Below, one piece after another: positions 27,901 to 32,000 of a DNA stretch of 32,000 bases. Under the pieces are notes generated by a model that was not told the DNA's origin, ran no database searches, and was given only the letters and a program-made list of their open reading frames with translations. Source of the DNA: Saccharolobus solfataricus (GTDB lineage: Archaea; Thermoproteota; Thermoprotei_A; Sulfolobales; Sulfolobaceae); the NCBI RefSeq assembly GCF_900079115.1, contig NZ_LT549890.1, forward strand, positions 2,580,001 through 2,612,000, read 5' to 3'. Position 1 is the first letter of the stretch; every line of letters starts with the position of its first letter. The position numbers and the translations under genes were made by a program.

Positions 27901-28779
27901 CTAAGACCAAGGTCTCATCGATTTCAAAGACGATACAAACTTATCTAGAAAATAACTCTTCTCTCTAAAATGCTCATCTATTGCCCTCCAATCCTCTTCT
28001 GACAATCTCCAACCCATTGCACCAGCATTTTCCTCTATATGGGGTATTTTAGAGGCTTTCACTATTGGTATCAAACTGTTTTTACCAGTAATATACCAAT
28101 TTAAGGCTACTTGAGTTGCAGTCTTATTGTACTTCTTACCTATATTAGCTAAGAACTCATTCCTAGCTAATATTCCATTTTCCAATGGTGTATACGCCAT
28201 ATACATCAGTCCATTTTTCTCCGCGTAAGCTAAAGCCCTCCTCTCATCACTTCTACTTAGCAAACTATAGTGATTTTGAATTGCGACAATTTCATACTTA
28301 CTGACACACTCTCTGGCGCTCTCTATTTGGTCCACATCGAAGTTACTGAGCCCAAAAAACCTTATTACACCATCATCTACCAGTTTCTCAAATGCCCTTA
28401 TAGTCTTGCAAATCGGTACTCTTGATGGAGCGTGAAGTAAATAAAGATCTATGTATGTGCCTAGTCTTCTTGAACTATTTTTAGCTGACTTTATTACATT
28501 ATCATAGTCAGCATGACTAGGCCAAACCTTAGACACTATAAACAATTCTTCTCTGCTAAATTCCTTGATCGCTTCACCTACCAATTCCTCAGCGTGACCA
28601 TTACCGTACATTTCAGCAGTGTCGATAACTCTTAGTCCTAGTTCTATTGCCCTACGAATCGCACCTACCCATTCATTGTCTCTGTCATGAGAGGAGTACC
28701 AATAACCTCCCCCAATCCTCCAGGTTCCAAAAGCTAGAGGTGATACTGTAAAGTATTTAAATTTCTTAACGTCTTCCAT
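27901..28779 (-). CDS. aldo/keto reductase
   Basis: Carries FGTWRIGG, IDTAEMYGNGHAEELVG and LYLLHAP. Confidence 0.88.
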   Translation of the reverse strand: MEDVKKFKYFTVSPLAFGTWRIGGGYWYSSHDRDNEWVGAIRRAIELGLRVIDTAEMYGNGHAEELVGEAIKEFSREELFIVSKVWPSHADYDNVIKSAKNSSRRLGTYIDLYLLHAPSRVPICKTIRAFEKLVDDGVIRFFGLSNFDVDQIESARECVSKYEIVAIQNHYSLLSRSDERRALAYAEKNGLMYMAYTPLENGILARNEFLANIGKKYNKTATQVALNWYITGKNSLIPIVKASKIPHIEENAGAMGWRLSEEDWRAIDEHFREKSYFLDKFVSSLKSMRPWS

Positions 28780-28791
28780 AAATATACCTTA

Positions 28792-28810
28792 AATTCGTTC
28801 CTTTTAAAAA
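28792..28810 (-). promoter_or_regulatory. TATA-like box plus conserved AAGGAACGAATT motif upstream of the AKR gene
   Basis: On the coding strand the sequence reads tttttaaAAGGAACGAATT, followed by 12 nt and then the ATG at 28779. Confidence 0.4.
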
Positions 28811-29042
28811 TTGTCTTCTAATGCATATCTTGTCTATACTTTCTGAGACTTTAAAGGACAAACTCTCTTCCTAATATACGGAAAGGTCTTTATGTAATTT
28901 TGGAAACGTTGTTGCCCTTTAGACTATAAGCAAATATAATATTTGAAGAAAGGGGGATAAAAACAAGCAATTTAACTTAGCTAAATATTATTATAAAACC
29001 TAAACCTTTAACTGACTATCAAGTGGTGATGAAGAGGAAGTG

Positions 29043-29196
29043 ATTCAAGTCTCCTTTGCGAATTGCAATTTGTAAATAATACTGTTGTAAAAATGTTAAT
29101 ATTGGTAGTCATGCATCTCCGCCAGTTAGTCGTCTTCAATTAGTTAATTTCGTAGTAATCTTTAAAATAAACTGAATTCACAATGGCTAACTGAAT
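29043..29196 (+). repeat. 154-bp repeat unit, left copy (MITE-like, with imperfect terminal inverted repeats)
   Basis: It is the exact reverse complement of 30770-30923 (154/154, checked base by base). Its own two ends are imperfectly inverted (attcaagtctcctttgcgaattgca vs the reverse complement of the other end, attcagttagccattgtgaattcag). Confidence 0.9.
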
Positions 29197-29506
29197 CTCC
29201 CTAAAAAGCTTCTAATGTAGTGTTATCGGGAGGCTATAGATAAAAATCCGAAAAATAATAATTACGCACTAATTTTAAAATTTTCCAGTACAGTATTATA
29301 GTAGGAAAATGGAAATTTCTAATTAAGTAGGTTTCCCTATATTATGATATTCCACTGGTGTGAGCAAGCTGTTAATAGAAGTAGAAGGATGATGGACTAC
29401 TGTTTAGACTGTAACACATTTGCATAACTTTTAAATACTTTTAATCATTTCACAATATGATCTTTATTATGATTATGTTTATATATTATTTCCTCTACAT
29501 TATAAA

Positions 29507-29698
29507 TTGATGAACCCCATACTGATGACGGGCTATGCTCACGAGGTATTGGGGGCGACAAATACGGATGGGAGGGTAGTGGTGTTTCCCTCGACTAGCC
29601 CCAATGAGTTGAGGGTGAGTGTGTATGAGCCCTCAAGAGGGGTGCCCGTGGCGGAATTAGAAGTAGTTAAAAGTAAGCAGAAGTTACGCCACGGGTAA
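29507..29698. ncRNA. GC-rich structured island: candidate structured RNA, or alternatively a 63-aa ORF on the + strand
   Basis: By hand count, 95 of 180 nt are G+C in 29521-29700, against 21 of 100 in 29401-29500. Four stems are present: 29548-54/29599-605, 29572-76/29588-92, 29609-15/29630-36 and 29645-53/29687-95. The strand and the RNA-versus-protein question are unresolved. Confidence 0.3.
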
Positions 29699-29778
29699 AC
29701 ACTCGCTAAATGTAATGTATCTTTACTTCAAGAAAGGAAACACATTTGTATAGTAGCTTCTGATTTTTTAAGAAGATT

Positions 29779-30219
29779 TTACTTATTCCTTTTCTCTTCA
29801 TATAACTTCTTTGCATATTCCAATATTTCCTCAGCAATTTTAATTGATTGTTGACCATCATAAGCTGAATAGAGTAGTTCAGGAGGAGTATTAGTTTCTT
29901 CATCACCATACATTGATAGTTCCCTTTCTTTCCTTAGGGATCTCGAGTATGAGGCAAAAATATCTATCTTTTCTTTAAACCATTGTGGAAATTTGTCTGT
30001 ATTATTTTTTAATATTGGACCTACATCATGAAATTTGGGTGGTTCTATATTAACCAATCTAAGACATGCTTTAAGAGAGAGCTCTACAGCTTCTTGACAA
30101 AGTCTTACTACAATGTTATATTTCTTTCTTTCATATTCTGTTTTAGCTAAATCTAATCTTTCTTCAGCTTGTGTAATATATGAAAATGCTAAGGAATCAA
30201 AGTTCAACCGTTTCACCAA
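29779..30219 (-). CDS. HEPN-domain protein (toxin partner of an MNT-HEPN module)
   Basis: 146-aa helical ORF with the HEPN (PF05168-type) landmark PPKFHDVGPIL. It overlaps the upstream nucleotidyltransferase gene by 23 nt. Confidence 0.8.
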   Translation of the reverse strand: MVKRLNFDSLAFSYITQAEERLDLAKTEYERKKYNIVVRLCQEAVELSLKACLRLVNIEPPKFHDVGPILKNNTDKFPQWFKEKIDIFASYSRSLRKERELSMYGDEETNTPPELLYSAYDGQQSIKIAEEILEYAKKLYEEKRNK

Positions 30220-30721
30220 ACCCTGAATCCTTTTTAAGTATCCAATACCATCTCTTACCCATCCTTACTCTCTCAGCACCTAATTCCATAAGCCTCCCCT
30301 TTAATTTTTGCAATATCTTAGTGAAGAATTGGTCCTTATCGTAGAGAATTACAGCGTCATATACCATATCTAGATAAAGAGGTGAAATCTTTCCCGCTTC
30401 CTCGGGAGTTTTAAGAATGGGAGAAAGTGATATGTAATAACCCTTACTCCAATACTCATCTAAATTTAACTTATCCTCGACCTTGGTCTCAAACAATCTA
30501 ATTCTTTTAAGTATACCGTCCATAGGTAAATTATCTATAACTATCAATAAATCTACATCACTATCGTTTCTATTATCTCCCCTAGCAACGCTCCCATAAA
30601 GTACTACCGATATCAGATCATCTTTAAATTCCTCTCTCATTATTTTGACCATGTCATTGAGCAACTTAGCATAAGGCTCCTTAATCATATGATATATAAA
30701 TCCTAAAAATCTAATAAACAT
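30197..30721 (-). CDS. minimal nucleotidyltransferase (MNT) domain protein
   Basis: Carries VVLYGSVARGDNRNDSDVDLLIV, the polymerase-beta-type GS...DxD motif. The start may instead be the internal ATG giving MIKEPYAKLL. Confidence 0.85.
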   Translation of the reverse strand: MFIRFLGFIYHMIKEPYAKLLNDMVKIMREEFKDDLISVVLYGSVARGDNRNDSDVDLLIVIDNLPMDGILKRIRLFETKVEDKLNLDEYWSKGYYISLSPILKTPEEAGKISPLYLDMVYDAVILYDKDQFFTKILQKLKGRLMELGAERVRMGKRWYWILKKDSGFGETVEL

Positions 30722-30769
30722 GTCGTTTTATACTTAAAACGAAATCATAGTGGGATTATATTTATGGTT

Positions 30770-30923
30770 ATTCAGTTAGCCATTGTGAATTCAGTTTATT
30801 TTAAAGATTACTACGAAATTAACTAATTGAAGACGACTAACTGGCGGAGATGCATGACTACCAATATTAACATTTTTACAACAGTATTATTTACAAATTG
30901 CAATTCGCAAAGGAGACTTGAAT
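30770..30923 (-). repeat. 154-bp repeat unit, right copy (inverted)
   Basis: It is the exact reverse complement of 29043-29196. Confidence 0.9.
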
Positions 30924-31031
30924 TGTCCTATAGTTATAAATTCACTTTTCCTTTTTATTTCGCCTAACCCTTAAATTTTTCTCGATATTAATCTATATGA
31001 TTTATCTCAAATTCAAAATTATCTGTGGGCG

Positions 31032-31081
31032 ATTCATGTTTCCATTGCGAATTGTAATATTCTCTATGAATTAGGCTAATT
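31032..31081 (+). repeat. degenerate relic related to the termini of the 154-bp unit
   Basis: 31032-31058 (attcatgtttccattgcgaattgtaat) matches the first 27 nt of the unit at 23 positions. 31067-31079 (tgaatt-a-ggctaa) resembles the other terminus with an internal deletion. Confidence 0.35.
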
Positions 31082-31314
31082 CTAAAATAGATAATAGTAG
31101 TTTTCTGAAAATGATCCCTAATAAATGATGTTAAAAGTTTGTTCCATTTAGGATATATAATATTTAGACTATACCCTTTTAATATTTATAATTATTAGAA
31201 TCTTCTTGAAGAGAATCTACGTAAACATTTAAGGCAAAAGGCATTCAAGATAACTTTACCTAAAAATACTATAGATTAAGAAACACTCCTCAATAGCTGA
31301 TAAGTCAGAAATAC

Positions 31315-31322
31315 TTTTATAA
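31315..31322 (+). promoter_or_regulatory. TATA-like box for the tRNA gene
   Basis: The sequence ttttataa ends 26 nt upstream of the mature tRNA 5' end. Confidence 0.4.
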
Positions 31323-31347
31323 TCCTTGTTTTCTTTATGTTTATGAT

Positions 31348-31423
<76 letters not shown>

Positions 31424-31657
31424 TTGTTACTAAAGAAAGGATAGCCACAAAATTTATCTCTACTAGTTTTTGGGTGGCGAATAATCTCACTGGTAAGAGA
31501 TAAATAGCTAGTTATAAAAGAATTTTTACATATCAGTGGGAGATTTCATTTATAACAGACGGGGGTTCAAAGGGGGCGGAAAACTTCTCTTTGAGATGAA
31601 TCCCTTTGTAGAAAAGTTAAAAATAGGAAAATAACGAAATACACATCAATACCCACC

Positions 31658-32000
31658 TTAGGGTTTCGCTTCCGTGCATACACTGACGAACAAACCCTTA
31701 GGGCGTTAAAGGCCCAGTTGAAGTTAGCGTGCGAAATCTACAACACCTTAAGGTGGGCAGACATATACTTTTACCAAAGGGATGGGAAAGGACTAACACA
31801 AACTGAGTTAAGACAGTTGGCTCTAGATCTGAGAAAACAAGATGATGAGTATAAGCAAGTCTACTCGCAAGTAGTTCAACAAATAGCTGACCGTTACTAC
31901 GAAGCTAGACAGAGGTTTTTCGAAGGTTTAGCACGTTTCCCGAAAGAAAAGAAACCTCACAAATACTACTCCCTAGTCTATCCCCAGTATGGTTGGAAAA
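31658..32000 (+). CDS. IS200/IS605-family TnpB (OrfB)-like protein, N-terminal part, truncated by the window end; possibly a pseudogene
   Basis: My translation is [114 protein letters not shown]. It matches the usual TnpB N-terminal pattern (xFRxY-P/T-xxEQ...L...). The frame is open from 31595, but the first in-frame ATG/GTG/TTG is the TTG at 31718. Confidence 0.7.

Follow-up and report, generated by a model that had tools for sequence, protein, structure and literature searches.

A perfect 154-bp inverted repeat in the genome of the archaeon Saccharolobus solfataricus consists of two copies of a MITE (miniature inverted-repeat transposable element), a non-autonomous derivative of an IS256/Mutator-type insertion sequence (IS) that is widespread in Sulfolobales. 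The repeat lies in a 32,000-nt stretch of DNA (contig NZ_LT549890.1, positions 2,580,001 to 2,612,000; hereafter the window, in whose coordinates all positions are given), and its arms bracket two overlapping genes that encode a minimal nucleotidyltransferase (MNT) and a HEPN-domain protein. Coordinates in AE006641.1 (Saccharolobus solfataricus P2) are obtained by adding 2,507,589 to the window coordinate. The initial annotation of this stretch offered two readings of the structure, a cassette mobilised in trans and a segment that flips by recombination between the arms. Here, we find that it is probably neither a mobile cassette nor a switch, and that MITE and IS activity more likely left it as a passive by-product in a rearranged junction beside a tRNA-Thr gene.

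In the course of events that we propose, two MITE copies of approximately 163-164 bp would have come to lie in opposite orientation in a rearranged junction between an aldo/keto-reductase gene and the tRNA-Thr gene. They enclose the MNT-HEPN pair, moved in this lineage from its usual neighbourhood of flavin-reductase and YHS genes, together with a short stand-alone 3' end of a TnpB gene that is unrelated to the pair. The right copy would have inserted singly, with a 9-bp target-site duplication (TSD) of its own, and the left copy would be older, damaged or a recombination joint.

Two MITE copies form the inverted repeat

Over 154 nt the left arm (29043-29196) is the exact reverse complement of the right arm (30770-30923), the match ends at all four edges, and 1573 bp separate the exact arms. 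A repeat search of the window returned arms of 163 nt (29043-29205 and 30761-30923) at 98% identity, which are the 154 exact nt plus 9 nt with 3 mismatches, and a 43-nt probe of the arm end matched these two sites alone in the window, with 0 matches expected (100 shuffles). Both searches bear out the abrupt-edged exact repeat of the initial annotation, and its statement that no transposase or recombinase lies inside agrees with the list of open reading frames (ORFs) and with Pfam, which show none in the interior. The length of 154 bp that it gave for the repeated unit is correct for the exact identity, but the mobile unit measures 163-164 bp.

The wider family was recovered with a degenerate motif of the arm end, ATTCANGTNTCCNTTGCGAATTG, in a genome scan that covered one genome per species. 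The 15 loci that it gave all belong to Sulfolobales, with nine of them in strain HS-7, another five in Metallosphaera javensis and the last in a metagenome-assembled genome. No S. solfataricus match was returned, even for the window's own arms, and the species is seemingly absent or masked in that scan. The HS-7 copies are units of 163-166 bp with the form GGGYG-ATTCAGGTTTCCATTGCGAATTG...GAATTCGCAATGAACGCGTGAAC-GGCCC; the window unit aligns with them over its full length, and against a profile made from these copies the window arms score E=1e-33 to 1e-34. In one HS-7 copy (L021) a perfect 8-bp TSD, GAGTTCGT, abuts tips that read GGACG...GGCCC, and its position shows that the family element extends past the window's 154-bp identity by 5 nt at either end. 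The terminal inverted repeats of the unit (ATTCAAGTCTCCTTTGCGAATT versus ATTCAGTTAGCCATTGTGAATT) agree by eye at 16 of 22 positions, and both ends are conserved in the family alignment. Family tips read GGGYG...NGYCC, from which the outer tip of the left arm, AAGTG, deviates in having no terminal GG. The unit is non-coding, with all six frames interrupted except for one 32-codon stretch, for which a 46-aa query found no protein homologue.

The parentage of the family is given by its terminal repeats. In M. javensis the same terminal repeat borders ORFs that match Pfam PF00872 (Mutator/IS256 transposase, E=2.5e-13), and a homologous transposase remnant lies beside it in a metagenome contig. Since transposase ORFs of this type stand beside the same terminal repeats, the arms are assigned to a MITE derived from an IS256-type IS. 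The initial annotation had called the arms MITE-like units, and this is confirmed by their end-to-end homology to multi-copy 164-bp MITEs of Sulfolobales and by the terminal repeats that they have in common with IS256-type IS. Members of the IS256 family make TSDs of 8-9 bp and have ends that start with GG. The window family resembles them (for example, ISC1332 in Sulfolobus) in its terminal repeats with a GG start, in TSDs of 8-9 bp (8/8 for the HS-7 copy, 8/9 for the right arm) and in the PF00872 ORFs beside the same repeats in M. javensis. It differs in that the window units carry no transposase, with only a 58-bp remnant of an IS end nearby.

Sulfolobus MITEs have been described under the names SM1-SM4 and SM3A (Redder, She & Garrett 2001, cited in PMC10969869 and PMC3718332). 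SM3A is 164 bp long in S. islandicus and is tied to ISC1058, which is listed in the IS5 family (PMC3718332). The window units are like these MITEs in organism (P2), short non-coding form, terminal repeats shared with an autonomous IS and, for the right arm, a TSD, and their 163-164 bp agrees with the size of SM3A. Unlike SM3A with its link to ISC1058 and IS5, the window repeats are of the IS256/Mutator type, a comparison made by size and description.

Copies of the family are many in HS-7, M. javensis and S. shibatae. Within 40.7 kb of P2 sequence, a profile search found two MITE copies and one IS end only. The 164-bp unit had no match in plasmid or phage collections; the arm-end motif had none in viral contigs, and in metagenomes it picked up two IS ends. 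Rfam, searched at gathering thresholds and at E<=10, returned tRNA only and nothing for the arms or for the GC-rich island between them. Breaks of Logan short-read contigs inside the arms were considered as a sign of further copies and set aside, because k-mer collapse of the two arms explains them equally well.

The right arm, read as a 163-bp element (30766-30928), is flanked by 9-mers that match at 8 of 9 positions. Across the window, 9-mers so spaced match at 8/9 or better with a frequency of 6e-5 for a single offset, and of approximately 0.008 when the scan over offsets is included (both empirical). The insertion lies approximately 77 bp upstream of the MNT start codon. From its flanks, the right arm has the look of an ordinary insertion of one element. 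This is not true of the left arm, which is no clean insertion and most likely is older, damaged or a recombination joint. No TSD that brackets the whole block abuts its ends, the best match being 6/8 at offsets of 4 nt only. An element of 154 bp with abutting TSDs was also considered, and none was found for either arm. The initial annotation's report of no TSD at the outer edges therefore stands for the ends of the block, where none abuts, but not for the right arm, which alone has its 9-bp TSD.

A solitary IS256-type end of the same terminal-repeat family is found beyond the right arm, 98 bp away, and its tip points toward that arm (Table 1); it is 93% identical to IS ends in two metagenome contigs (L030 and L031). 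The 98 nt between the right arm and this end were examined as a possible decayed MITE and gave no profile match at E<=1.

Table 1 Features of the inverted repeat and its surroundings, in window coordinates.
Feature	Position	Strand	Description
Left MITE copy	29038..29201	+	Nominal 164 bp; core 29043-29196; tips AAGTG, CTCCC; nhmmer E=1.6e-34 to family profile
AT-rich spacer	29202..29503	.	No homologue in fetched loci, plasmid or phage records
GC-rich island	29504..29700	+	Read as stand-alone short-form copy of TnpB-related (IS605 OrfB) 3' end (omega-RNA region); spurious 63-aa ORF
HEPN-domain protein	29779..30219	-	142-146 aa; Pfam PF05168 (3e-21); overlaps MNT stop codon
MNT (minimal nucleotidyltransferase)	30197..30688	-	163 aa from conserved start; Pfam PF01909 (2e-10), PF18765; GSx11DxD motif present
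MNT upstream/promoter region	30689..30754	-	Conserved with S. shibatae; inside bracketed segment
Right MITE TSD, inner copy	30757..30765	.	TATATTTAT
Right MITE copy	30766..30928	-	163 bp, inverted versus left; core 30770-30923; tips GGACA, AACC; nhmmer E=3.2e-33
Right MITE TSD, outer copy	30929..30937	.	TATAGTTAT
Solitary IS256-type end remnant	31027..31084	+	58 bp; GGGCGATTCATGTTTCCATTGCGAATTG...; same terminal-repeat family as MITE arms
tRNA-Thr(GGT)	31348..31423	+	Borders rearranged junction

A rearranged junction with a conserved gene pair

The surroundings of the repeat differ between P2 and its relatives. In S. islandicus L.D.8.5 and S. tengchongensis the reductase gene adjoins E1 dehydrogenase genes, a synteny that is broken in P2, and in S. 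islandicus the tRNA homologue lies beyond genes for a mechanosensitive channel and a VTT protein. Homology upstream of the reductase ends at window position 28836. This end of homology, together with the different neighbours, marks the P2 stretch from 28837 to the tRNA as a rearranged, lineage-specific patch with debris of mobile elements. The P2 genome has a known IS load and four MITE families of 25-44 copies each (PMC10969869). Compared with the S. islandicus and S. tengchongensis loci, positions 28837-29037 have no recognisable origin. Beyond the tRNA, a tnpB gene starts at approximately 31649; its 5' part (31550-32000) has a second copy, approximately 96-97% identical, about 4 kb beyond the window (L001, 4414-4864). 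Inter-strain single-nucleotide polymorphisms cluster in this tnpB region at the window end, and none falls between or in the arms.

Within the patch, the MNT and HEPN genes overlap by 11-23 nt. The longest MNT ORF (30197-30721, 174 aa) starts 11 codons upstream of the start found in all orthologues (163 aa), and the longer P2 gene call is probably over-extended. MNT orthologues of 163 aa with 75-90% identity occur in many Sulfolobales, among them S. shibatae, S. islandicus, S. caldissimus, Sulfurisphaera, Stygiolobus and Acidianus. In S. islandicus and S. caldissimus a flavin reductase gene stands on one side of the pair and a YHS-domain gene on the other, and in S. tokodaii the pair adjoins copA/YHS; in S. 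shibatae and S. solfataricus it is found in other places. Homology at the DNA level to the loci of other species does not reach beyond window 29764-30754, which takes in the two genes with no more than 66 nt on their upstream side and 15 nt on their downstream side. The exact P2 MNT protein occurs at one locus only, and orthologous pairs in five other species have neither paired MITEs nor the island. On these sequence comparisons, MNT-HEPN is a conserved and apparently relocated gene pair, and not strain-specific cargo.

In one of its two readings, the initial annotation had also labelled the pair a toxin-antitoxin module carried as cargo. The MNT and HEPN domains and the overlap of the genes are as it described, and in these respects (PF01909 with GSx11DxD, followed by PF05168) the pair is like the HEPN-MNT (type VII) toxin-antitoxin modules. 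A regular expression did not find the Rx4-6H RNase motif in the window HEPN, and, again unlike the type VII modules, the pair belongs to a single conserved set of orthologues with partly conserved neighbours. For a conserved, usually cop-adjacent pair whose HEPN protein has no RNase motif, the label of toxin-antitoxin cargo is unsafe. Toxin-antitoxin behaviour is an assumption in that label, and the pair may not behave as a classical toxin-antitoxin system.

In two strains of S. shibatae (L032, 5771-5936; L040, 3771-3936) the boundary upstream of MNT is likewise abutted by a related MITE, which is oppositely oriented and falls into another subfamily. One end of this MITE is identical to the window's solitary IS end at 31 of 32 positions. 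This suggests that the boundary upstream of MNT was struck repeatedly by this transposon family, or that an ancestral element was present there.

The second component of the bracketed segment is the GC-rich island, which reaches 50-58% GC (approximately 29500-29700) against 22-35% in the background. Its 63-codon frame has approximately 34 homologous cluster representatives at E<=1e-3, of which about 30, the majority, are orphans of 44-90 aa, WP_029552566.1 and WP_048052798.1 among them. Annotation as a hypothetical protein is seen for some in S. solfataricus, S. islandicus and M. yellowstonensis, and the island ORF itself had no exact match on record. One homologue is a 441-aa protein (P0210) whose last approximately 90 residues align with the island (tblastn of residues 350-441, E=1.3e-18). 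This protein is TnpB-related (TIGR01766, E=6.7e-20; NF040570, 4.6e-14), and its source names it 'IS605 OrfB'. The short forms share one internal deletion, which removes a RuvC-III-like segment, and their 5' parts are read in shifted frames, a combination that fits conservation of DNA or RNA rather than of protein. GC content likewise peaks at the 3' end in each of the two tnpB genes that neighbour the window, and the plus strand of the island folds only modestly better than shuffled sequences (z=-2.4). In our reading, the island is a short-form tnpB 3' end that stands alone, a copy of the part that serves as the omega-RNA scaffold region in TnpB systems.

Such a copy is like the omega-RNA or right-end regions of TnpB and the miniature elements derived from IS200/IS605 (for example, SMN1 in S. 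islandicus) in its homology to the last approximately 90 codons of tnpB, its GC-richness and its dispersed orphan copies, and unlike them in having no adjacent tnpB gene and no Rfam model. An alternative assignment as a C/D-box or H/ACA RNA rested on motifs seen by eye that have no Rfam support, and homology to TnpB explains the island better. The island was also considered as part of the MNT-HEPN module and rejected, since the loci of five other species cease to be homologous at 29764-29790. The island alignment found no locus in viral contigs, and the 577-bp stretch of spacer and island had no match in plasmid or phage collections. A 30-nt stretch of the spacer (29422-29451) is 73% complementary to the AT-rich loop in the last hairpin of the island (29660-29689), which may be chance in AT-rich DNA.

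These components bear directly on the proposal of a trans-mobilised composite, in which an IS256-type transposase supplied in trans would act on the outermost MITE ends and move a 1.9-kb block (MITE, island, HEPN, MNT and MITE). Such a block would be expected to leave an 8-9-bp duplication abutting its outer ends, and there is none; the right arm has a TSD of its own, so it arrived alone. Two inverted copies with intact sub-terminal repeats do bracket the block, and MITE-bracketed cargo has a bacterial precedent in the MITE-flanked integron of Acinetobacter (review PMC10969869), which the window resembles in having two inverted MITEs on either side of genes. The context of MNT-HEPN has changed in both S. 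solfataricus and S. shibatae, and in S. shibatae the MNT upstream region is again adjoined by a related MITE, but that is a single copy of another subfamily in the opposite orientation. The exact MNT protein is confined to one locus, island and spacer are not linked to MNT-HEPN in the other loci compared, the left outer tip AAGTG departs from the family-typical terminal GG, and the nearby IS end is present in truncated form only. Unlike known MITE-bracketed transposons, the window block has no flanking duplication, no second locus and no sign of movement. With MNT-HEPN found elsewhere without paired MITEs and the island unrelated to it, the composite cassette is not borne out, and we regard it as very unlikely.

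Orientation, identical cores and differing tips

Inversion between the arms, the second proposal of the initial annotation, would flip the 1.57-kb interior either as a programmed switch or as a low-frequency neutral polymorphism that keeps the arms identical. Sulfolobus recombines short homologies, and 154 bp of perfect inverted homology is an adequate recombination substrate; the abrupt end of identity at the edges is also in keeping with inversion. Three further S. solfataricus assemblies (CP033235, CP160827 and CP050869) have the same orientation as P2, so that all four assemblies have one orientation. The halves of the right-arm TSD stand in direct order, which indicates no net inversion since insertion of the right arm: an arm-to-arm inversion would swap them, and the flanks predicted after such an event are absent. 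There is no recombinase gene in or next to the block, and the MNT promoter region lies inside the segment and travels with the genes, so no on/off logic is apparent. The structure is like invertons and other phase-variable segments in its inverted repeats around a short segment, and unlike them in lacking both a recombinase and a promoter placed where a flip could switch it, and in showing a single orientation. Inversion at this locus thus appears improbable, although it may occur rarely. Composite mobility and inversion, although possible, are both unsupported.

What most needs explaining is the contrast between the interiors of the arms and their ends, and here several observations weigh against the by-product reading that we prefer. 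The cores differ at 0 of 154 positions, whereas the 5-nt tips differ at 5 of 5 (AAGTG versus GGACA) and 3 of 5 (CTCCC versus AACCA), 8 of 10 in all. Two fresh copies of one master should share their tips, and the core-tip pattern is not what they would predict. Rapid change at the tips is not a property of the family: tips of the HS-7 type diverge no faster than cores (22-28% versus 21%). The left arm has no TSD, the best match being 5/8, which is not significant. The multi-copy status in P2 rests on the literature (PMC10969869) and on relatives. As for the named families (SM1-SM4), the units may belong to a family other than SM3A, or the published assignment may differ. Finally, the four assemblies are near-clonal, with no difference over 28500-31536, and are a weak test of orientation and no test of arm divergence.

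Each window tip still resembles a tip variant of the family. The tips occupy positions 29038-29042, 29197-29201, 30765-30769 and 30924-30928. In Sulfolobus plasmids, inserted elements have been seen to decay imprecisely (PMC4390865), which makes damage to the tips plausible. The initial annotation had argued that zero divergence means either a recent copy or homogenisation, a reasonable inference, and either may hold. Under the by-product reading, the cores would be identical either as recent copies of one master or through gene conversion, and the order of events would be as proposed above, with no present mobility.

No simple model predicts identical cores together with unrelated tips. If the arms were older and independently inserted, and if gene conversion had overwritten their interiors, with either the opposite arm or further copies in the genome as donor, the difference between cores (0/154) and tips (8/10), with every tip still close to a family variant, would be accounted for; so would a left-arm TSD of only 5/8, as if decayed, and a right-arm TSD that already has one mismatch. 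Plain gene conversion with its anchor in diverged homology would make mismatches rise gradually toward the edges of the core, but no such gradient is there, and a partner diverged enough to have lost its TSD should be a poor substrate for conversion. We give such concerted evolution a modest chance only. In a stricter form, arms that are old, independent and immobile would have their 154-bp interiors held identical by ongoing gene conversion or inversion-type recombination as tips and flanks drift, which we consider somewhat less probable still. If true, the locus would be a natural read-out of short-tract concerted evolution between archaeal inverted repeats, and the MNT-HEPN segment would flip at low frequency.

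A local inverted duplication, with one arm a template-switch or repair copy of the other and not a product of transposition, would explain why identity is confined to exactly 154 bp and why the left arm has no TSD. For this, a MITE would have had to be there already and the copied tract to start and stop 4-5 nt short of its two ends, and the 5-mers that flank the left arm (xxGTG and CTCCC) still resemble family tips. It is the least credible of the explanations considered, and we hold it to be extremely improbable.

Meaning for Sulfolobales genomes

A perfect inverted repeat in a model archaeon is, in all probability, resolved into two MITE copies in place of a new mobile cassette or switch, and as such is a feature of a known kind. 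The MITE family itself is tied to IS256-type ends and spread over several genera of Sulfolobales. The enclosed GC-rich island may be an orphan omega-RNA-like gene, a dispersed mini-element that has no Rfam family and is often annotated as a 63-aa hypothetical protein. Should the pattern of identical cores and unrelated tips be general, it would shed light on the homogenisation of repeats, or on the decay of MITE ends, in Sulfolobus.

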